From a bacterium (GTDB lineage: Bacteria; Krumholzibacteriota; Krumholzibacteriia; LZORAL124-64-63), in contig WJIQ01000136.1 in assembly GCA_014730255.1 (NCBI GenBank), positions 1 through 64,000 of the forward strand: DNA of 64,000 nucleotides, read 5' to 3'. Position numbers and translations under genes: made by a program. Below the pieces are notes generated by a model, which ran no database searches, was not told the origin of the DNA, and saw only the letters and a program-made list of their open reading frames with translations. Positions 4,599 to 42,306 of this stretch are shown here, in pieces. Each line of letters opens with the position of its first letter. Position 1 is the first letter of the stretch.

Positions 4599-6593
4599 TC
4601 AACGCACGAGCGCCAGGCGCGCCGTCCGCCGCTCGCCGGCGATCTCGAGCACCGCGAGGTAGACGCCGGCCGCGGCCTCGCGCCCCGCGCGGTTCCGGCC
4701 GTCCCAGCCGACCGTCCGCTCGCCCGCCGGGATCTCCCGGTCCAGCAGCGACCGCACCAGCCGCCCACGCGCGTCGTAGAGCACGAGGCGGGCATGCCCG
4801 GCGGTCGGGCTGCTCAGGTGCAGCGTGGTGCGCGGATTGAAGGGGTTGGGCCGGGCCGCGAGCGTGAGCGCGGGGCTGGCCGGCGGCGTGGCGGTCAGCT
4901 GGTCGAGGTAGGCGTTGCACAGGATCCAGTCCTGCGGATCGAACTGGCAGATGCCCACCCCGGGCGGACCGGTCAGGACGTAGTGCTGCACGCGCCGGTC
5001 GTTCTCGACGACGACCTCCTCGAAACCGAGGGCGTGGTGCAGGCGCAGCCGGATCGGCATCTCGAAGACGGGCTCGTCCTGGGTCTGCTCGATGCGGACG
5101 TGGATGGTGGACCGCTCCGGACCGCTGGCGACCTCGTAGCCGAACAGGTACTCCGGATGCCCCGACCCGTAGATCCACTGCTGGAAGAAGGTCGCCAGGT
5201 CGCGTCCGGAGACGTCCTCCATGGCCGCCTGCAGGTCCTCGGTCGTGGCCGTCCCGTAGGCGAACCGCTCGCGGTAGAGCGCCAGTCCGGCGAAGAAGTC
5301 CTCGTCGCCCAGCACCCCGCGCAGCATGTGCACGACCCAGCTCGCCTTGTCGTAGCTCAGGTCCAGATCGAAGATCGAGCCGAAATCGTCGGGGTCCTCG
5401 ACGTAGATCGTGCCGCCGCCGAGGTACTCGTTTTCGAGCATCTCCTCGCGGTAGGCCGCGAACCCCTCGGTCTGCTCGCGCCAGTAGGCCTCCGACCAGG
5501 TCGCGAACCCCTCGTTCAGCCAGATGTGATGGAAATCGGCGCAGGTCACCAGGTCGCCCCACCACTGGTGGGCGAGCTCGTGGGCGATCAGCCCCTCGCC
5601 GTGGAAGTAGTAGATCATGCTCGAGCAGGTCTGGTGCTCCATGCCCCCGCCCCAGGTGAAGTGCGCGTGGCCGTACTTCTCCGCCAGGAACGGATACTCG
5701 CCGAACGCCCCGCGGAAGACGGTGATCATCTCGGGCACGCGGCCGTAGCCCTCGCGCGCCTCCTCCTCGTAGTCCGGGACGACGTGGTTCTCGACCGGCA
5801 TCGTGGTGCCGTCGAGCGCGGTGTAGGTGTCGGTGAACACGCTGTAGGGGTAGGCGGTGATCGAGACGAGGTACGTGGCGATGGGATAACGCGAGCGCCA
5901 GTGGTAGGTGGCGCGGCCGCCGTCGCGGTTCTCGGCGGCGAGCACGCCGTTGCTGGCGACCACGTACGGCTCGTCGATGGTCACGCGCACGTCCACCGAG
6001 TCGGCCTTGTCGACGTTGAGGTCCTTGCACGGCCACCACGTGCGCGCGCCGTAGGGTTCGCTCAGCGACCAGACGAGCTTCCGGCCGTCGGCCCACGACC
6101 AGCCGAACGCGTTGCCGGCCCCGGACGGATCGCCGTGGTAATCGACGGCCACGGTGACCGTCTCGCCGGGCTCGTAGAGGCGGTCGAGGTCGATGGTCAG
6201 GCGATCGTCCGCGTGAGTGAAGGTCACGGGAGCGGCGTCGACGCGGACCGCGTCGGTGGTCAGCAGCGAGGTCAGGTCGAGCACCAGGGTATCGGTCGCC
6301 TCGTCCACGACGATCGCCGTGGTCTCGACCGTCCCGTCGAGCGTCTCGCCGGCGACGTCGACGTCGAGGTCCAGGTCGTAGTGCGTCACGTCGAAGAGCA
6401 GCTGCACCGGGTCGGGATCGCCGACCGCCCTGTCCGCGGCCTGCCGCTCGAGCGCGGCGATGCGACGCTCGGCCTCCCACTGGCGCCACGGGTGCGGTCC
6501 CTCGGGCACCTCCCCCGGCCGGGGCTGGAGCGGCGGGCCGGCGAGGGTGGTCGCGGCCATGGTCAGCAGCACGAGGCCGAGGAACGAGCGCAT
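4599..6593 (-). CDS. secreted M1-family aminopeptidase (gluzincin) with C-terminal FlgD-Ig/T9SS-type sorting domain
   Basis: ORF 4599..6695; start at MRSFLGLVLLTMAATTLA signal peptide; GAMEH and HELAHQWWG-x18-NEGFA zinc-binding motifs; C-terminus RPNPFNPRTTLHLSSPTAGHARLVLYDARGRLVRSLLD...ALVR. Confidence 0.9.
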   Translation of the reverse strand: MRSFLGLVLLTMAATTLAGPPLQPRPGEVPEGPHPWRQWEAERRIAALERQAADRAVGDPDPVQLLFDVTHYDLDLDVDVAGETLDGTVETTAIVVDEATDTLVLDLTSLLTTDAVRVDAAPVTFTHADDRLTIDLDRLYEPGETVTVAVDYHGDPSGAGNAFGWSWADGRKLVWSLSEPYGARTWWPCKDLNVDKADSVDVRVTIDEPYVVASNGVLAAENRDGGRATYHWRSRYPIATYLVSITAYPYSVFTDTYTALDGTTMPVENHVVPDYEEEAREGYGRVPEMITVFRGAFGEYPFLAEKYGHAHFTWGGGMEHQTCSSMIYYFHGEGLIAHELAHQWWGDLVTCADFHHIWLNEGFATWSEAYWREQTEGFAAYREEMLENEYLGGGTIYVEDPDDFGSIFDLDLSYDKASWVVHMLRGVLGDEDFFAGLALYRERFAYGTATTEDLQAAMEDVSGRDLATFFQQWIYGSGHPEYLFGYEVASGPERSTIHVRIEQTQDEPVFEMPIRLRLHHALGFEEVVVENDRRVQHYVLTGPPGVGICQFDPQDWILCNAYLDQLTATPPASPALTLAARPNPFNPRTTLHLSSPTAGHARLVLYDARGRLVRSLLDREIPAGERTVGWDGRNRAGREAAAGVYLAVLEIAGERRTARLALVR

Positions 6594-31965: not shown

Positions 31966-34118
<2,153 letters not shown>

Positions 34119-34122
<4 letters not shown>

Positions 34123-35045
34123 GCGGCAACCGGGACGATCGCGCCAGGCGCCGCTCGCCGTACCCGATCTCCGGCTGGGACCTGGGCCGGCTGAGGCTGC
34201 ACGCCCCGGCCCGGCCCCTGGTCATGGGCATCCTCAACGTGACCCCCGACAGCTTCTATCCGGGCTCGCGCCGGCCCGAACCGGACGCGGCCGTCGACCA
34301 GGCGCTGGCCATGATCGCCGCGGGCGCCGAGCTGCTCGACATGGGCGCCGAGAGCACGCGCCCCGGGGCCGAGCCGGTGCCCGATGCGCAGGAGCAGGAC
34401 CGCCTGCTCCCCGTGCTCGAGGGTCTGCGCGGCCAGACGGACGTGCCGCTGAGCGTGGACACCCGGCGGGCGTCCACGGCCGGGCTGGCGATCGAGGCGG
34501 GCGCCGACGTGATCAACGACATCGGCGCCGGCCGCGATCCCGGGATGCTGCCGCTGCTCGGCCGCTCGCGGGCCGGCGTGGTCCTGATGCACATGCAGGG
34601 CGAGCCTGACTCCATGCAGCGCGATCCCCGGTACGACGACCCCGTGGCCGAGGTCCGCGACTGGCTCGAGGACCGGGTCACCGCGGCGGTGGCCGCGGGC
34701 GTCGACGAGAACCGCGTGCTGGTCGACCCGGGCCTGGGCTTCGGCAAGCTGCTGCCGCACAACCTCGCCCTGCTCGCCGACCTGCGTCGCGTGGCCGCGG
34801 GGCGCCGGCTGCTGGTGGGCGCCTCGCGCAAGAGCTTCGTCGGCGCGATCACCGGCGCCGGCGTCGATGATCGGCTACCCGGCAGCCTGGCCGCCCTGGC
34901 GGCCGCCCACGCCGCCGGAGCGATGGTCGTGCGCGTGCACGACGTGGCCGCCTCGGTCCAGTTCCTCGACGTGCTGGCGGCGATCGCCGAGGCCGGCGAC
35001 GACGAGGCGGACGAGTCCGTCGTTGAGCAGCCACCGGGCCCGTGA
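34119..35045 (+). CDS. folP: dihydropteroate synthase
   Basis: GILNVTPDSFYPGS, DMGAESTRPGA and VLMHMQG pterin-binding motifs; ATGA overlap with ftsH stop. Confidence 0.9.
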
Positions 35046-35138
35046 TACCGTCTCGACGTCGCGCGCGTATGGGGTGACCCCCGCGACGGCACGCCACCTC
35101 GATCCGGCACGACCCTCGACCAGCGGCGGGAAGCCTCC

Positions 35139-35933
35139 ATGTGGGAAGCCATCTCCCAGAGCCCCATCATCGACGTCCTCGACGTCATCATCGTCGCCTG
35201 GCTGCTCTACCGGCTGCTGCGCCTGGTGCGCAACACGCGGGCGGTGCAGATGGTGGCCGGCCTGGCCATCCTGCTCGTCCTGAGCTTCGTGGCCAGCAGC
35301 CTCGGCATGATCGTCGTCGGCCGGATCATCACCTCGCTGCAGACGGTCTGGGTGGTGGCCTTCATCATCCTCTTCCAGCCGGAGCTGCGCTCAGCCCTGG
35401 CCAACCTGGGCATGCAGCAGCGGCTGAGCTTCCTGCAGGGCAAGGCCGACGAGCTGCCCGCCGAGACCGAGATTCTCAAGGCGGTCGAACGGCTCAGCCG
35501 GCGCGGCCTCGGTGCGCTGATCGTGCTCGAGCGCGAGGTCGGCCTCGACCGCTGGGTCAAGACGGGCACCGAGCTGAACGCCTCCATCAACGCCGCGCTC
35601 CTGGAGACCATCTTCACCGTGCCGGCGCCGCTGCACGACGGCGCGGTCATCATCCGCGACGACAAGATCGCCGCGGCCGGCTGCACCCTGCCGCCGACCG
35701 AGAGCGAGCGCATCGGCTACGTGCTCGGCCTGCGCCATCGCGCGGCCATCGGCCTGAGCGAGATGTCCGACGCGATCGTGATCGTGGTCAGCGAGGAGAC
35801 CCGGGCCATCTCCCTCGTTCATGGCGGCGAGATCAAGCGCGGCCTGAGCCTCGAGGACCTGCGCACCGAGATCGGTCGCGTCCTCTACGCCGGCGAGCAG
35901 CGCAAGCCCGCCGCCGAGCCCGCCAAGACCTGA
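35139..35933 (+). CDS. cdaA: diadenylate cyclase (c-di-AMP synthase), membrane-anchored CdaA type
   Basis: Three N-terminal TM; DAC domain DGAVIIRDDKIAAAGCTLP and LGLRHRAAIGLSEMSDAIVIVVSEETRAISL. Confidence 0.85.
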   Translation: MWEAISQSPIIDVLDVIIVAWLLYRLLRLVRNTRAVQMVAGLAILLVLSFVASSLGMIVVGRIITSLQTVWVVAFIILFQPELRSALANLGMQQRLSFLQGKADELPAETEILKAVERLSRRGLGALIVLEREVGLDRWVKTGTELNASINAALLETIFTVPAPLHDGAVIIRDDKIAAAGCTLPPTESERIGYVLGLRHRAAIGLSEMSDAIVIVVSEETRAISLVHGGEIKRGLSLEDLRTEIGRVLYAGEQRKPAAEPAKT

Positions 35934-36199: not shown

Positions 36200-38230
36200 T
36201 CAGCTGGCGAGGGAGGTCAGGAGCGAGGATCGCGCGGGCTCGCGCGAGAGGGCCTTGACGAAGATCTCGACCAGGTCCGGATCCAGAGAGCGGCCAGCCT
36301 CCTGCTGCAGGGCGGCGACCGCCTGGTCGGCGTCGTCCCGGTGCATGACCAGGGCGAAGTGCTGGGCGATGGCCACCAGCCGGGCGACCAGGGGGATGTC
36401 GCGGCCGGACATACCGAGCGGGAAGCCCCGTCCGTCGAACCGCTCGTGGTGATGCCGGACGGCGTCGCGGACCGCGCTGGGCGCATCGAGCTCGGCCATG
36501 CGCTGGTCGCCGACGTCCGGGTGCGCGCGGAACGCCTCCCAGACCTCGCCGGTCAGCTGGTCGCTGGCCAGATCGTCCACGTCGTTCTGGTCCTGCCCCA
36601 CGTTGCGGACCAGGGCGCCGAGGACGAGATCGCGTTCCTGATCGGGCGGCAGCCCCAGCTCGCGGGCCAGCAGCCGCACCGCGCGGGCGGTCTCCTGGGT
36701 GACCGCGTGCGCCTCGGTCTCGGCCTCGCCGACCAGGAGCGACTCGAGCAGGCCGAGGCTCATGTTCGCCCGCTGCTGCCCGTCCCGCAGGCGCAGCAAC
36801 GCCTCGGCGGTGATCTCGACCAGCTCGTGGATCTCCTCGCCGGGCTCGTTCGGCGGCCCGTGCCAGTCGAGCCCCAGGGCGACCACACCGAGCGTCTGCT
36901 CTTCCTGCCGCAGGACGGCGAGCCAGCCGAGCTCGCGTTCCAGCAGCTCGTCGCGGACCGCGGCGAAGCTCGCCGGCATGTTCTCGATCTCGACCGGACG
37001 CTCGAGGGTACGGAAGAACGTCTCGATGCGCTCTCCCGACAGATCGACCGGTTGATCGCTGCGCCGCGCGGCGCCGGCGGCGAACGCCGGCAGCCCTGAC
37101 GCGCCGGGATCGACGAACAGCAGGCTGGTGACCTCGGCCGCCGCGCGCAGGCGCGAGATGAAGACCTGCCAGAAATGGGGCAGGTCCTGCGCGTCCTGGA
37201 GCCCGCGCGCCAGCTCGAGCTTGACCGCGAGCAACGTCTCGCGGTCCCGGCTCACCGTCGCGGCGGCCTCGCGCGCCGCCGCATCGGCGGCGGCCACATC
37301 CTCGGCGTCGGGCACCTGATCCATCAGGCGCTGCAGCATCTCCAGCGCGAAGACCTCGGGCAGCAGGTAGTCGTGATCGTCGCCCGCACGCTTGAGGAAC
37401 ACGACGCCGGCCAGGTCCTCGTGGCGCAGGAGCGGCATCAGGAGATCCGGACGCAGGTCCTCCAGGAGCTGCGACTCCTCGTCCCAGAGCCGGCCGTTCT
37501 CGATGTCGAGCATCGTCAGGGGTCGGCGGATCTCAAGGAGCGTCTCGGCGATGCCGCCGCGCTGTGGCACCCGCCACGCCCCGTCCGGCGAGACGAAGTG
37601 CTCCCCTTCGGCCAGGCAGCAGATCGTCTCGCCAGCGAGGTCGTGCGCGTCGAGCATCACCCCGAGCGCCTCGCCGAAGGCGGCATGATTGCCGCCCTCG
37701 GCCACGGCGCTCAGGACGTCGTCGAGCGAGACGTAGACCGCGGTCACCAGGTCGGCGGTCCGTCGTTCCTTGTCCGAGGAGAGGTTGGCGTCGTCGACCT
37801 CGTAGTCGTCGAGGAGGTCGTCGAGCGCCGCCTCCCCGCCGGCGTGTTTCTTCGCGCTCGAGCCACCGGAGGCCCCGACCGCGCTCCCGAACACCACCCG
37901 GGCCTCGTTGAGTGAATCCAGGCAGCGTAGCGGCAGGTCGCCGAACTTCTGGGCCAGGAACCTCTGCATCACCGGTCCGACGCCGACGAAGACGACCTCG
38001 CCGCCGCGACCGGTCAGGTCCTTCTGCAGATCGGCCAGCACGCCGGCGCCGCGACCGCCCAGGCTGTCCAGATCGGAGCAGTCCAGCAGCAGTCGCAGCT
38101 TTTCGCGCTCGAGGCACTTCTTGGCGAGATCCAGCAGTTTCTGACGATCACCGCGGCCGAACGCCCCGTGCACCCGGATCCCGAAGACGTCCGTCCCCGG
38201 GAGCTCCAGCGGTTCGAAGCGGATGGGCAC
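36200..38230 (-). CDS. STAS domain - GAF - degenerate HD-GYP domain signalling protein
   Basis: 676 aa; N-terminal STAS-like (VHGAFGRGDRQKLLDLAKKCL...LLLDCSDLDSL); GAF regions; C-terminal HHHERFDGRGFPLG but LLHDIGK position reads LVRNVGQ and upstream His is Glu. Confidence 0.75.
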   Translation of the reverse strand: MPIRFEPLELPGTDVFGIRVHGAFGRGDRQKLLDLAKKCLEREKLRLLLDCSDLDSLGGRGAGVLADLQKDLTGRGGEVVFVGVGPVMQRFLAQKFGDLPLRCLDSLNEARVVFGSAVGASGGSSAKKHAGGEAALDDLLDDYEVDDANLSSDKERRTADLVTAVYVSLDDVLSAVAEGGNHAAFGEALGVMLDAHDLAGETICCLAEGEHFVSPDGAWRVPQRGGIAETLLEIRRPLTMLDIENGRLWDEESQLLEDLRPDLLMPLLRHEDLAGVVFLKRAGDDHDYLLPEVFALEMLQRLMDQVPDAEDVAAADAAAREAAATVSRDRETLLAVKLELARGLQDAQDLPHFWQVFISRLRAAAEVTSLLFVDPGASGLPAFAAGAARRSDQPVDLSGERIETFFRTLERPVEIENMPASFAAVRDELLERELGWLAVLRQEEQTLGVVALGLDWHGPPNEPGEEIHELVEITAEALLRLRDGQQRANMSLGLLESLLVGEAETEAHAVTQETARAVRLLARELGLPPDQERDLVLGALVRNVGQDQNDVDDLASDQLTGEVWEAFRAHPDVGDQRMAELDAPSAVRDAVRHHHERFDGRGFPLGMSGRDIPLVARLVAIAQHFALVMHRDDADQAVAALQQEAGRSLDPDLVEIFVKALSREPARSSLLTSLAS

Positions 38231-38245
38231 GTCGACGACTCCCGA

Positions 38246-38464
38246 TCAGACCATCGTCTCGGCCAGCCACTTGTCCAGGACGCTGCGGAGGAAGCGCCAC
38301 TCGCTGCCGACCTTCTTGGCCGGGATCTTCCCCTCCTTGGCCAGCCGGCAGACGGTCTTGACGTGCATCTTGAGGTAATCGGCCGCCTCGACGGACGTCA
38401 TCACCTGGTTGGTCGACTCCTCGGCGCCGATGTAGATGCTGGGACGGTCCTTCTGGTCGAGCAT
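38246..38464 (-). CDS. small helix-turn-helix DNA-binding protein (excisionase/MerR-like HTH_17 family)
   Basis: 72 aa; MTSVEAADYLKMHVKTVCRLAKEGKIPAKKVGSEWRF; 13 bp upstream of the STAS-GAF-HD-GYP gene. Confidence 0.6.
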   Translation of the reverse strand: MLDQKDRPSIYIGAEESTNQVMTSVEAADYLKMHVKTVCRLAKEGKIPAKKVGSEWRFLRSVLDKWLAETMV

Positions 38465-38699
38465 GACCTGAACTCCCGGATCGTGCTTGCAAAGCAGTCA
38501 CAGTGCCACCTGTGTAGACCCTCTGGCAGCAACTCCCGTGCCGCGGGGCGGCACGCCCGGGGCGCTCCCTGAACACGAGGATACGACCATTCGAGGCGGT
38601 CCTAGGAACGCGAACGGCCCCTCGCGGCCCGCCGGGGCATTGCAATAAGCAAGCGGGAAGAATGAGGAACCGGGCGAGATGTCGAGGCGCGCTGGAACG

Positions 38700-39503
38700 T
38701 CAGGCGCCGAGCGCAGAGAGCAGGTCCCGCGTCCGGTAGGGGGGGGCCCAGATGCCGGGACGGGCGGAGCCCGCCGGTCGTGCGCCCTGGACCACGACCA
38801 GCGGTGGCGCGTCGTCCGGCAGCAGCCGGCACAGCTGGCGGTGGTGGCGCGTCGGCGCCGCGTCGTCGCAGACCACGAGATCGGGACGGGCGGCCCGCAG
38901 ACGCTCGACGAGGCTGGGCGCGTCGGCCGGCGAGACCACGCGCGCGCCGGCCTGCTCCAGCCGACGGGTCAGCGCCGCGCGGCGGACCTCGCCGGCCACG
39001 AGCAGCCAGACCTCGCGCAGGGCCCGGGTCGGGGGGTCCTTCCCGGGTGGCGTCGGCCCGGCCGTCGGTGGCGTGGTCGAGGGCGCCTCCGGTCCGCCCC
39101 AGAGCCCATCGGCGACGCGGCGGACGCGGGCCCACAGCGGCGCCACGTCCTCGGCCGGCGCGCGGTCCCAGGCGCGTGCCATGTCCTCGGTCGCGGTCAT
39201 GAGTTCCTCGAGCTGGGCCTGGATCCGGGGATCGCCGATCGGGTCGGGAAGCGCGCCCAGCGTCGCGGCCAGGTCCTCGAGGGCCGCCGCGGCCGCCGTG
39301 GCGCCCCGGTCGGCATGCTGGCCGAGCGCGGCGGCGAGCAGACGCAGCGCCAGGGCGGACCGGCCGGCCGGCCCCAGAGGGCCGGGCTCCCGCGGCACGT
39401 CGGCGCCGCGCCCGGGGGCATCGACGAAGCGGCGGAGCCGCTTGCGCAACTCCGCCACCAGGTCCGCCAGACTTGCCTCGGACAGCGTCATCGGGTCGAT
39501 CAA
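38700..39503 (-). CDS. hypothetical protein with C-terminal pseudo-receiver domain
   Basis: 267 aa; helical N-terminus; C-terminal VWLLVAGE...PDLVVCDDAAP...LVVVQG resembles REC fold lacking the N-terminal acidic pair; 4-bp overlap with upstream gene. Confidence 0.5.
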   Translation of the reverse strand: MIDPMTLSEASLADLVAELRKRLRRFVDAPGRGADVPREPGPLGPAGRSALALRLLAAALGQHADRGATAAAAALEDLAATLGALPDPIGDPRIQAQLEELMTATEDMARAWDRAPAEDVAPLWARVRRVADGLWGGPEAPSTTPPTAGPTPPGKDPPTRALREVWLLVAGEVRRAALTRRLEQAGARVVSPADAPSLVERLRAARPDLVVCDDAAPTRHHRQLCRLLPDDAPPLVVVQGARPAGSARPGIWAPPYRTRDLLSALGA

Positions 39504-41434
39504 CCGATCCTCTCGGCTCCGAACTCGGCGAGGTCGTAGATCGTCTCCTCGCCCTCGGCGCCTGCGGCGGGCGGTAGCGGGACCGCATCGAATTCCGCCA
39601 GATCATAGATCTTTTCGTCCTCCGAGGAAACCCCCTCGGTGAGGACCTCGCCGGCGAGCGGGGACGCCGGCACGGACTCCGGCATGGACACCGACATGGG
39701 CTCCGGCGCGGTCGTGAGCGACTCCTCGAGCCCCGGCACCGCCGCCTGCTGGAAGTCGCCGCCCGCGGCCGAATCGGCATCGAAGATCGATCCGCCCGAG
39801 CGGGCGAACGGATCGGCGACCAGCCCGGCGTCGGTCGCCGCCTCCGAACCAAAGGGATCGTACTGCTCGACCGCCAGGCTCGCGCCCGGCGCGGCCGTGG
39901 CGTCACCGGTGCCACCGGTATCCAGGCCGGTGAGGTCACCCATGACGTTCAGCAGCTGATCGATGCGCGCCGACTGAACGTTGAAGGTCTGGGCCAGCTT
40001 GACCAGGCCGGAGGCCGACTCGCCCGCCACCGGGGCGACCTCGCGCAGGGACGCGGCGAGGTCGGTCGACTCATCGTCCTCGAGCACCGTCGGATCCAGC
40101 TCGGCCAGGCGTCCGCGCACGGTCTCGATGACCCGCTCGCGCGGGTCCCCGTCCTCGCCCGACACGGACGCGTCGGTGCTCTTGCGCAGCGCGGTGGTGA
40201 GCTCCTCGAGATCCTGCGTCAGGGGCAGCAGACGCTCGCCCTTGGTGCCGAGTCGCGCCACCTCCATGGCGATCTGGAAGGCGAGACGGCTCGCCCGTTC
40301 GACGAGGGTCACGATCGAGGCGCCACCCTCGCCCTCGCCCTCGGCGGCGCGGGTAGGCAGGTTGGCCAGCTCGCTCTGCACGGCGACCAGCGCCTGGCGC
40401 AGCCGATCGCGCTGGCGAGACCGCGGATCGTCCTCGGACAGCTGCTCGGTGAGCTTGCCGAGATGGCGGGCCACGCGCTCGGCGGCCGCGCCCTGATGAT
40501 GGAGCGTCTCGAGGGTCGTGGCGTTCCAGGTCCGGGCGTCGCGCAGCCCGGTCACGAGATCGGGGCCCTGCGCCTCGAGCGCCGAGCTCTGATCCCTGGC
40601 CATCGAGCGGGCCTCCTCGGCCTCCTTCAGGAGTCGCTGGCACTGGTCGGCGAGGCTGCCGACCGGCGGGCTCTCCCAGTCGGCGGCCAGGTCGGCCAGG
40701 TTCCCCTCGGACATCGCCTTCTCGAGGCGGTGCATCTCGCCCTCGAGACCGACGTAGCGCGTGAGCTTGGCCTGCTGCAGGTTGAAGTGGCCGAGCAGGC
40801 CGCTGGTGACCGCCGCCAGCTCCGGATCGTGCTGCAGCTCGTCGCGCTGCCACGTCTCGGGCTTCTCGGGGTCGAGGCCGCGGATGGCGCCCAGGATGGC
40901 CGCGTCCTCCTCGGCCTGCACCAGCAGGTGGCGGACCCGCCGCTCCACCGCCAGCGCGGCCAGGAACCCGGCGAACAGCATGACCACCGCCGAGAGCCAG
41001 AAGGCGTTGACCGGATAGCTCCGGAAGTCGCCGATCGTCATCGGATCGCGGAATCCGGAGAAGTCGAGCAGGGCCTCGGGAGTGATCCCGGCCGCGGTGA
41101 TCAGCCCCGAGCCGAGGGTCAGGCCGCCGAGCAGGACGAGCAGGAAGCTCAGGAAGGCGCCCCCGCGGACCCGTGAGCCCGGCGAGCGGCGCTTGCGGGC
41201 GCGGCCCTTGCGACCCTTGCCCGCGGTCTTCTCCTTCGCGTCCGTCGGCGTGGTCGTCCCGGCGTCCGGCTGGTCCTCGAGATCGGGGTCGTCCAGGGCC
41301 AGGTCCAGATCGTCCTCCGCGGCCGCCGGGTCGTCCTCGGGGAAATCGGACAGCAGGTCCGCGTCCCACTCGCCGGCCGAAGCGTCGGCGTCCTTCGCAC
41401 CGTCGTCGAGATCCAGATAGTCGCGCTCACTCAT
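39500..41434 (-). CDS. membrane coiled-coil signalling protein with MCP-like segment and tandem C-terminal IYDLAEF motifs
   Basis: Start MSERDYLDLDDG within ORF 39500..41677; acidic N-terminus, two TM helices, long coiled coils, segment ASRLAFQIAMEVARLGTKGER resembling the MCP signalling-domain core, C-terminus ...EDEKIYDLAEFDAVP...EETIYDLAEFGAERIG. Confidence 0.6.
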   Translation of the reverse strand: MSERDYLDLDDGAKDADASAGEWDADLLSDFPEDDPAAAEDDLDLALDDPDLEDQPDAGTTTPTDAKEKTAGKGRKGRARKRRSPGSRVRGGAFLSFLLVLLGGLTLGSGLITAAGITPEALLDFSGFRDPMTIGDFRSYPVNAFWLSAVVMLFAGFLAALAVERRVRHLLVQAEEDAAILGAIRGLDPEKPETWQRDELQHDPELAAVTSGLLGHFNLQQAKLTRYVGLEGEMHRLEKAMSEGNLADLAADWESPPVGSLADQCQRLLKEAEEARSMARDQSSALEAQGPDLVTGLRDARTWNATTLETLHHQGAAAERVARHLGKLTEQLSEDDPRSRQRDRLRQALVAVQSELANLPTRAAEGEGEGGASIVTLVERASRLAFQIAMEVARLGTKGERLLPLTQDLEELTTALRKSTDASVSGEDGDPRERVIETVRGRLAELDPTVLEDDESTDLAASLREVAPVAGESASGLVKLAQTFNVQSARIDQLLNVMGDLTGLDTGGTGDATAAPGASLAVEQYDPFGSEAATDAGLVADPFARSGGSIFDADSAAGGDFQQAAVPGLEESLTTAPEPMSVSMPESVPASPLAGEVLTEGVSSEDEKIYDLAEFDAVPLPPAAGAEGEETIYDLAEFGAERIG

Positions 41435-41688: not shown

Positions 41689-42306
41689 ATGCCGGCCACG
41701 ACGACCCGCCCCCCGGCCGAACCCCGATACCGCGGCCTCTTCCCCTCCTGGGACGGCGCCCGTCCCCTGGGCTGGTACTTCGCCGAGCAGATGCTCGAGG
41801 CCCGCGCCGAATCCGACTTCCCGACCAACGCGGCGGGACACGACGAGGACGTCAACCTCTACATGATCGCCCTCCTGCGCGCCTGGGTCGATCGGGACTC
41901 CGTCGCCGGCATCCTGCCGGGCGTCGATCCGCTCGTGCAGCCGCTGCCGCGGACCTGGAGTCGCCGGCGGCGTGCCGAGCACTGGCGCCGTCAGGCCGAT
42001 CACCGGCTGCTGGCCCTGGGCCTGTTCGACCGCGGGGACCTCGCACGGCGACGGAAGGTGGGGTACCGGTTCACCGCCGCCGAGATGCACGCGCGCGACG
42101 TGACGGTCATGGTTCGCGGCTATGCGACGGCCGCCACGCTGGTGGCCGACCGCCCCGACCTGCGCGGTCTCGCCACGGTGTGGCGCAAGCTCGCCGACCA
42201 CGGCCCCGACTACGTCCACGTCCTGCAGACGCTCGCGCGGCGACGGTTCGGCCTGGGCGCCCGCCTGGGCGACGACGAGCTCGAACGCCTGCTCGCCAGC
42301 GCCTGA
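41689..42306 (+). CDS. hypothetical protein
   Basis: 205-aa ORF with normal codon bias; no recognisable motif. Confidence 0.45.
   Translation: MPATTTRPPAEPRYRGLFPSWDGARPLGWYFAEQMLEARAESDFPTNAAGHDEDVNLYMIALLRAWVDRDSVAGILPGVDPLVQPLPRTWSRRRRAEHWRRQADHRLLALGLFDRGDLARRRKVGYRFTAAEMHARDVTVMVRGYATAATLVADRPDLRGLATVWRKLADHGPDYVHVLQTLARRRFGLGARLGDDELERLLASA

Follow-up and report, generated by a model that had tools for sequence, protein, structure and literature searches.

Chemosensory pathways are defined by the CheA kinase. The nearest known system to the locus described here is Wsp, in which WspA is the methyl-accepting chemotaxis protein (MCP), WspE is a hybrid of CheA and a receiver (REC) domain, and WspR provides a cyclic di-GMP (c-di-GMP) output. 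The core set of such alternative cellular function (ACF)/Wsp pathways comprises an MCP, CheA, CheW, CheR, CheB and a receiver output (PMC8846402). Here we describe a signalling locus of four minus-strand genes at positions 36,200 to 41,434 of a 64,000-nucleotide stretch from a bacterium of the candidate phylum Krumholzibacteriota (GenBank assembly GCA_014730255.1, contig WJIQ01000136.1, positions 1 to 64,000 of the forward strand; hereafter the window, with a G+C content of ~72%). Like Wsp, the module combines an MCP-type membrane protein with an adjacent CheA-receiver hybrid and an output domain of the c-di-GMP family, and its basal relatives also carry a REC-GAF-HD-GYP protein. Yet four of the six defining components of Wsp are missing or dead here. 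At the locus, the ACF core set is represented by an MCP derivative and a CheA remnant alone; no genes for CheW, CheR or CheB were found there, nor any for CheR or CheB in the related loci. The CheA-like protein of the module has neither the P1 histidine nor the kinase motifs, or is cut to 200-350 amino acids (aa), or is absent; the output domain is an HD-GYP rather than a GGDEF, and is catalytically degenerate; and an HTH_17 gene and a STAS domain have been added.

With a probability of about 0.6, we take this locus to be a module of chemosensory type, descended in reduced form from an MCP and a CheA-receiver hybrid, conserved across the Krumholzibacteriota and most likely free of phosphotransfer. 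It looks like a stripped-down relic of a chemotaxis-type pathway, in which all of the enzyme domains look catalytically dead, and the best reading of its present role is a kinase-independent, chemosensory-derived scaffold or adaptor system, a mechanism that we infer. Searches of the literature on the phylum and on HD-GYP, STAS and chemosensory combinations found no description of the module, and a review of c-di-GMP sensory domains leaves STAS unmentioned in its main text (PMC8846402). An earlier note on this DNA had called the combination an unfamiliar one; through its relatives it can be recognised as a reduced MCP and CheA-receiver pair. The four minus-strand open reading frames (ORFs) listed in that note are all present, and they and the elements within them are as follows (TM, transmembrane).

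39500..41434, minus strand: membrane-protein gene, 644 aa; no Pfam match at E<=0.1
40940..41164, minus strand: two TM segments, aa 91-115 and 141-165, seen as AlphaFold2 (AF2) helices and as Kyte-Doolittle peaks at ~103 and ~154
40196..40306, minus strand: invariant hairpin-tip block LVERASRLAFQIAMEVARLGTKGERLLPLTQDLEELT, aa 377-413
39575..39619, minus strand: C-terminal motif, copy 1, DEKIYDLAEFDAVPL, aa 606-620
39506..39550, minus strand: C-terminal motif, copy 2, EETIYDLAEFGAERI, aa 629-643, ending 1 residue before the C-terminus
38700..39503, minus strand: gene for a 267-aa protein (p267); Response_reg E 0.0028, below threshold
38640..38652, minus strand: upstream dyad TTGC-N5-GCAA, family consensus TGCGGATTGCA; candidate activator site or operator for the helix-turn-helix (HTH) protein
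38528..38542, minus strand: sigma-54-type -24/-12 element GGCACGGGAGTTGCT, 64-78 nt upstream of the HTH start codon
38246..38464, minus strand: HTH_17 gene, 72 aa; Pfam HTH_17 E 3e-14
36200..38230, minus strand: STAS-GAF-GAF-degenerate HD-GYP gene, 676 aa; HD_5 E 5e-20, STAS 27.8 bits
~37952-38185 and ~36272-36703, minus strand: STAS and HD-GYP domains, respectively, within the 676-aa gene

From an acidic N-terminus the membrane protein runs through two TM helices into a long helical hairpin in the cytoplasm, and then through a disordered linker that contains an invariant DPF to a tandem motif at the C-terminus. Residues 1-60 carry a net charge of -22, a cluster of +10 ahead of the first TM helix implies an N-in, C-in topology, and the loop between the TM helices is ~25 aa long, with no periplasmic ligand-binding or sensor domain. 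Its homologues fall into 60 clusters (26-100% identical), not one of which has a Pfam domain, and when 1.84 billion representative proteins were searched exhaustively with the family profile, only 139 matched. The same search uncovered a sister family of shorter proteins (270-560 aa) that share the two-TM N-terminus and the tandem tail, and whose core reads EEANRLAINAALQVSRLGESG.ELV.VTEE.R.LS. When a profile of this sister family (A4) was compared with the PDB, the top 12 matches were all MCP signalling domains (2ch7/TM1143, Tsr, Aer; E 5.5e-10 to 4e-5), the best being TM1143 at 5.5e-10. MCPsignal is the top Pfam match in six of eight sister proteins and is present in seven, at 13-29 bits against a gathering score of 34.6. 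The profile of the window's own family (A1) aligns with A4 from the TM region through the tail (hhalign probability 99.6%, E 7e-25), and in this alignment its tip block lies on the sister-family block LAINAALQVSRLGESG.

Within the tip block, F386, I388-L395, E400-L402, P404, L409 and E410 are invariant in 45 sequences. The AF2 model places helices at 359-395 and 399-424, so that the turn at 396-398 falls inside the invariant block 386-410, which is evidence at the level of a model. Since the sister family matches MCPs and the tip block sits on the hairpin turn, the short stretch that the earlier note had compared to the MCP core reflects true homology; that homology is very remote and runs through the sister family, whereas the direct tests against Pfam and Tsr fail or are weak. 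Transitive profile homology, with no direct Pfam match, thus shows that the membrane protein descends, with great divergence, from the MCP signalling hairpin. Two further conserved short motifs were observed in the protein: an acidic-aromatic W(D/N)xDLLxDFPxDDP at aa 20-40 of the N-terminus (~41315-41375), and the invariant DPF within LVADPFA in the disordered linker at aa 526-545 (~39800-39860).

High-abundance chemoreceptors carry a C-terminal tether, the pentapeptide NWETF, which is the docking site for CheR and CheB. The membrane protein, itself of MCP type, resembles them in that a long flexible linker leads to a short, aromatic and acidic motif at its very C-terminus. However, its motif is unrelated to NWETF in sequence, is 12-15 aa long and comes in 2-4 tandem copies, and there is no CheR or CheB nearby. 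The duplicated IYDLAEF tail was already apparent to the earlier note, and the search for such repeats that it proposed found at least two copies of [ED][ED][KR][VI][YHF]DL[SA]EF[GD]A[VQ]x[LIV] in 51 of 54 aligned homologues (25-100% identical), some of which have four. Copies are spaced 20-28 aa apart, and in 49 of the 51 the final copy ends 5-6 residues from the C-terminus. A tandem tail of this kind is far beyond chance. The AF2 model shows the tail as disordered except for short helices at 612-615 and 635-638, exactly at the motifs, and a diverged membrane protein that the family hidden Markov models (HMMs) missed, in locus L082, still reads IVDLRSLGAVEF / IVDLRSLGAVEFDD at its C-terminal end. 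A role as docking tags is plausible for these candidate motifs, which could then be functional analogues of the NWETF tether; no further tail-bearing proteins were found within the window.

Directly behind the membrane-protein gene lies the gene for p267, which the earlier note had described as ending in a receiver-like fold without the N-terminal acidic pair. The AF2 model shows a five-helix N-terminal domain followed by a pseudo-receiver at aa ~160-267, and this part of the description stood. Residues 164-266 have a (beta-alpha)5-like fold in the AF2 secondary structure, and Foldseek retrieves receiver domains (CheY4, YycF), together with the FrzS and CikA pseudo-receivers, at target-normalised TM scores of 0.6-0.7, while Response_reg (PF00072) scores 18.2 bits versus a gathering score of 30.2 (E 0.0028). 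The acidic pair is missing from beta1 (VWLLVAG), the Thr/Ser from beta4 (VVVQG) and the Lys from beta5 (WAPPY); the phospho-Asp position in beta3 (CDDAAP) is kept (D213/D214). Homologues of p267 itself form 10 clusters, 43-53% identical.

In the sister and basal lineages, the same position encodes a 630-730-aa CheA-like protein with CheW and REC domains. The CheW domain is found in locus L090 (6e-9, 36.1 bits versus a gathering score of 23.5), Response_reg in L010 (6e-10) and L090 (1e-7), and HATPase_c in both, below threshold (E 0.0077-0.07), and the NCBIfam model CheA_Halo matches in L082 (3e-7). Aligned with E. coli CheA by hhalign, the long form is collinear over P4-P5 (255 columns, E 1e-4, probability 56%). 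The receiver part of p267, and only that part, aligns with the CheA-like long forms at 98.4% probability (E 9e-15), and the P4 HATPase_c and P5 CheW-like domains are absent from p267 of the window. These alignments show the p267 receiver to be what is left of a CheA-receiver hybrid, which basal relatives retain at full length and others have shortened or lost. The hybrid itself already appears to be disabled. The expected P1 histidine position is occupied by another residue in all eight aligned long forms (consensus KRAVMATRLLAGSA, Met in most), and by Arg in a separate long protein from L082 (TRATRALRGKAS), both positions having been placed by eye. In the L010 long form, hhalign sets HLLEDVCVNFG opposite the CheA N-box HLVRNSLDHG. 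The long forms are therefore best described as predicted pseudo-kinases, without the P1 histidine and the kinase N-box.

Two other origins were considered for p267. Descent of its N-terminal helical domain from a decayed CheA P1/Hpt domain is unsupported (hhalign probability 2.5%). A PhyR-like reading was prompted by the order of a helical N-terminal domain and a C-terminal receiver fold in the AF2 model, and by PhyR chains as the top Foldseek matches (E 5e-5 to 1e-3). However, the whole-chain TM score is ~0.3 at 14-18% identity, there is no sequence evidence for a sigma-like domain in p267, and its receiver is homologous to that of the CheA-like proteins, so PhyR was kept as a lead only.

The last gene of the locus encodes the 676-aa protein. 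Degenerate HD-GYP proteins are known from other bacteria, such as PA2572, with YN-GYP. Members of this group such as NosR (HG-GTP) are thought to act through protein-protein interactions (PMC12570481). The 676-aa protein resembles both in having an HD_5 domain whose HD dyad is replaced, and NosR is its best NCBIfam match (1.4e-25, far below that model's cut-off); it differs in that its input is a STAS and two GAF domains rather than a receiver, in that its dyad reads R-D or R-N, and in the strict conservation of its GYP block. The domain call of STAS, GAF and degenerate HD-GYP made by the earlier note was upheld, with HD_5 (PF13487) at 72.3 bits against a gathering score of 27.2 and STAS at 27.8 bits against 22.6; TIGR00377 fell below its cut-off, as did GAF_2 (23 bits versus 28.6), although a relative in L010 has two GAF domains above threshold. 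A contig look-up by the exact sequence of the protein returned no record. There are 44 clusters of full-length homologues, and in the searches run the STAS-GAF-HD-GYP architecture was found only in Krumholzibacteriota.

Across the 62 long STAS-GAF-HD-GYP proteins, the His of HD is Arg in 61, and its Asp is kept in 52 and replaced by Asn in nine, which belong to the window's clade. The first metal-ligand His is lost, the last Asp has become Gln or Glu, together with a 6-aa deletion, and the Lys of HDxGK is Leu, Met or Gln in the family. The third His and the block HHE..G.G[FY]P are nevertheless retained in 60 of 60 complete sequences (HHHERFDGRGFP in the window). The alignments thus show an HD-GYP domain that has lost three metal ligands (the first His, the His of HD and the last Asp) phylum-wide while its GYP block is invariant. 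The earlier note was right that the first His is missing, that RN stands for HD and that HHHERFDGRGFP is retained, but the residue aligned with the first His is not Glu, and RN occurs in the window's clade only, R-D being the state across the phylum. Its broader suggestion of a receptor or adaptor module rather than an enzyme holds.

Basal lineages carry an extra REC-GAF-HD-GYP gene directly after the degenerate one, downstream of the STAS gene (L010, 10537-12132; L082, 12411-14285; also L034, L067, L091, L085 and L092), with all of the canonical catalytic residues. Live and dead HD-GYP paralogues stand side by side in these lineages, and the live one has been lost at that position in the window's clade. 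At the phosphorylatable Ser position of the STAS domain, the window has Ser (DLDSLGG) and the family has Ser in 32, Thr in 8, Ala in 18 and Asn in 2 of 60 sequences; the locus shows neither an RsbW-type kinase nor a PP2C phosphatase.

The small HTH protein, for which the excisionase-type assignment was borne out, is the most conserved product of the module. It is encoded by 189 species genomes and was used as the anchor for collecting related loci, which were then scanned with HMMs; identities and taxonomy come from the best 80 of the 189. Among these 80 genomes it is 72-90% identical, and it is 78-79% identical to its counterpart in the sister lineage, as against 26-31% for the other module proteins. 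Almost all of the 80 are Krumholzibacteriota, and some records are labelled otherwise: block-bearing records (L014, L017, L019, L020 and many more) are titled 'uncultured Fibrobacteraceae', 'Gemmatimonas sp.', 'Fibrobacter sp.' or 'Latescibacterota', titles that are probably taxonomic mislabels. Wherever the sequence of a locus reaches far enough, a STAS gene almost always comes next after the HTH gene. In two metagenome proteins from ENA (P0046 and P0047), HTH_17/MerR, GAF, canonical HD-GYP and GGDEF domains occur in one chain, a Rosetta-stone hint that HTH_17 and GAF-HD-GYP proteins work together.

The arrangement of the four genes is less uniform than the '4-bp or short gaps' of the earlier note. 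The membrane-protein and p267 genes do overlap by 4 nt, the TTG start of p267 being interlaced with the TGA stop of the membrane-protein gene (GGTTGA), with a Shine-Dalgarno sequence GAGAGGA directly upstream of that start, but p267 and the HTH gene are separated by 235 bp. Between the HTH gene and the 676-aa gene there are 15 nt, where the earlier note gave 13 bp. When the gap preceding the HTH gene was aligned from six loci, an invariant GGCAY-N5-TTGCW emerged, which is the sigma-54-type element of the list above. GGCAYN5TTGCW matches once in the 64-kb window (0.15 expected) and exactly once, at the same place, in each of nine related loci. Among 84 non-redundant loci, 76 have the element at 50-89 nt upstream of the start of the HTH gene, whereas regions upstream of the MCP-like gene, used as a control, contain it in 1 of 56. 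Farther upstream, TGC-N5-GCA occurs in 56 of 76 loci at 109-112, 120, 129-132 and 140-142 nt from the -24 element, that is, in steps of one helical turn; the coding control has it in none of 76, and regions upstream of the MCP-like gene yield only scattered, unrelated matches. This phasing suggests a putative enhancer-binding-protein site, or an operator, constrained to one face of the helix. Because the conserved sigma-54-type promoter and the dyad sit in the 235-bp gap, the locus probably comprises two transcription units, as predicted from these elements, rather than the single four-gene operon first proposed. No sign of common regulation of both units by the same dyad or sigma-54 element was found upstream of the MCP-like gene. 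A search of the gap and the rest of the locus against Rfam found no riboswitch or other RNA element, merely sub-threshold microRNA noise, and a scan for sigma-70 promoters and terminators gave nothing meaningful.

The related loci form a series of reductions. In class D, the middle gene encodes the CheA-like protein of 630-730 aa, and a canonical REC-GAF-HD-GYP gene follows the STAS gene. In class B/C, it encodes ~200 aa (the helical part only), ~267 aa (the window's clade) or ~346 aa. In class A (8 loci), the MCP-like gene stands directly before the HTH gene, with no middle gene. In class E (16 loci), there is no 205-aa gene (described below), no MCP-like gene and no middle gene, and a short STAS protein lacks the HD-GYP. 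On a neighbour-joining tree of CdaA, the loci with the long CheA form are basal and class E is a single clade; the window therefore represents a state that is derived and reduced. What class E has lost jointly lies in two non-adjacent stretches. Two unrelated loci have, between the MCP-like and HTH genes and in place of the middle gene, a 370-400-aa ORF with a Cys-rich CPDPNCRFH...CLACG and a transposase-like look (L005 4533-5639, minus strand; L078 8520-9722, plus strand), which suggests insertion-sequence activity at this junction.

On either side of the module lie the following genes.

31966-35933, plus strand: ftsH, folP and cdaA, convergent with the four minus-strand ORFs
41689..42306, plus strand: 205-aa gene, divergent from the membrane-protein gene; no Pfam, NCBIfam or PDB match

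Conservation of the neighbourhood in relatives had been named by the earlier note as the point on which its view would fall, and the neighbourhood is conserved: a syntenic block of HAD-abhydrolase-[205-aa gene, MCP-like, middle gene]-HTH-STAS-(REC-HD-GYP)-cdaA-folP-ftsH extends throughout the phylum. The convergence with cdaA to which that note drew attention is likewise present, but since gene order from HAD to ftsH is kept phylum-wide, adjacency to cdaA signifies nothing specific. A functional link between the module and cdaA or c-di-AMP is accordingly not indicated and was rejected, the more so as an extra gene lies between the module and cdaA in basal lineages. Homologues of the 205-aa gene occupy the same divergent position in most loci that have the MCP-like gene, including those of the sister lineage (E 1e-12), and the gene is missing from the clade without the MCP-like gene; the two are nearly always co-inherited, although the 205-aa gene is absent from some tail-bearing loci (L001, L013). 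Members of this divergent family are 205-300 aa long, share a conserved motif around DEDVNVY...ADH.LL.LGLF, and were also located at L003 5966-6583, L010 2235-3038 and L082 4305-5105. In L082, a complete chromosome assembled from a metagenome, a carbon-nitrogen hydrolase-like ORF (5090-5938, plus strand) stands between the 205-aa-family gene and the diverged membrane-protein gene.

How might such a module operate? The membrane protein could act as a dimeric scaffold whose tip and tethered tails recruit cytoplasmic partners. Because the module can do without its middle gene, and some tail-bearing loci have no 205-aa gene, the candidates for a constant partner are the STAS-GAF-HD-GYP and HTH proteins, and the HD-GYP region is pointed to as the partner of the scaffold because the clade without the scaffold also lacks the HD-GYP part. 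The likeliest partner would thus be the STAS-GAF-HD-GYP protein, whose GAF and dead HD-GYP domains might bind a small ligand, such as c-di-GMP, without hydrolysing it. Its recruitment or release might then control the activity or availability of the co-transcribed DNA-binding protein HTH_17, which would be the output; a pairing of HTH_17 with GAF-HD-GYP has precedent, since a natural HTH_17-GAF-HD-GYP-GGDEF fusion exists. The most specific form of this proposal is a chemosensory array turned kinase-free, in which the tip and the tandem [VI]YDLxEF tags would hold the STAS-GAF-dead-HD-GYP protein at the membrane as a non-hydrolysing cyclic-dinucleotide receptor that gates HTH_17. We put this form forward tentatively, and the odds are against it in so detailed a shape.

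Several observations weigh against reading the locus as a reduced chemosensory module. The membrane protein has no match to MCPsignal (PF00015) in Pfam at E<=0.1, the profile of its own family finds only designed coiled coils in the PDB, and Foldseek of its model against the PDB returns generic helical proteins such as ABC transporters, none at E<=0.001, and is uninformative. Direct hhalign of the family with E. coli Tsr does set tip on tip (ALNAAVEAARAGEQGRGF), weakly, at a probability of 7.7%. The window contains no enhancer-binding protein, as judged by the GAFTGA signature. Ala replaces the STAS Ser in 18 of 60 sequences, so classical phospho-partner switching is not general, and the middle gene is absent in 8 loci and is therefore not a conserved partner of the tip or the tails. 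The HAD-to-ftsH synteny is phylum-wide, and gene adjacency alone is thus no proof of functional coupling; the joint loss in class E is one evolutionary event, which is suggestive and carries little statistical weight. The ancestry and anatomy of the module are solid in a way that its mechanism, every step of which we infer, is not.

The synteny would be the whole explanation if the genes were neighbours by inheritance only, and the membrane protein, p267 and the HTH/STAS pair had no functional relationship. In that case one would expect what is seen in the block order, kept across the phylum with its housekeeping genes included, in promoter signatures that differ between the two units, and in a clade that has no MCP-like gene and retains the HTH gene and a short STAS gene. 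We nevertheless find this improbable: the components all come from signalling families that cooperate elsewhere (MCP, CheA-REC, REC-HD-GYP), the membrane-protein and p267 genes overlap by 4 nt and 15 nt separate the HTH gene from the STAS gene, the clade that lost the MCP-like gene also lost the HD-GYP part of a gene not adjacent to it, and the HTH_17-GAF-HD-GYP fusion exists. The membrane protein could instead be a structural or positional coiled-coil scaffold, for example a polar or divisome-associated one, whose tails bind a cytoskeletal or envelope partner and whose resemblance to MCPs has no functional meaning. Its long coiled coils, the absence of a sensor domain, the coiled coils that alone match its profile in the PDB and its short acidic and aromatic motifs (the N-terminal WDxDLLxDFP, DPF and the tails) would all suit such a role. 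An invariant block exactly at the hairpin turn, aligned with the MCP tip through the sister family, would not, nor would a CheA-derived gene that, when present, is always directly downstream, and we regard a purely structural function as very unlikely.

A working ACF (Wsp-like) phosphorelay, with CheA, CheW, CheR and CheB functions supplied from elsewhere in the genome and an HD-GYP that is an active or conditionally active phosphodiesterase, seems to us similarly remote. Basal relatives do have the CheA-like hybrid and a canonical REC-GAF-HD-GYP beside the module, p267 keeps the phospho-accepting Asp position, the D of HD is kept in 52 of 62 proteins, and the searches covered the window and related loci. 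But the P1 position is not His in any of eight long forms and the L010 N-box is degenerate; the receiver is without its acidic pair, Thr/Ser and Lys; Arg replaces the His of HD in 61 of 62 proteins, and neither the first His nor the last Asp remains; and the locus has no CheW, CheR or CheB.

Across the phylum, then, the receptor tip has stayed invariant while the kinase decayed, from a pseudo-kinase to a 200-350-aa stub to nothing, and the downstream HD-GYP is dead yet strongly conserved. These loci provide a natural series of reduction intermediates in which to study the change from enzyme to pseudo-enzyme in signalling. They also give an uncultured phylum a concrete regulatory unit, in which a small, almost invariant HTH protein is encoded behind a sigma-54-type promoter and a phased dyad. 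Should the parts still signal, hairpins of the receptor type and HD-GYP domains would be able to serve purely as binding modules, and chemoreceptors would gain a new tethering motif in the tails. If the array proposed above is true, MCP-type receptors would have an output logic not described before, and a whole phylum would have maintained it.

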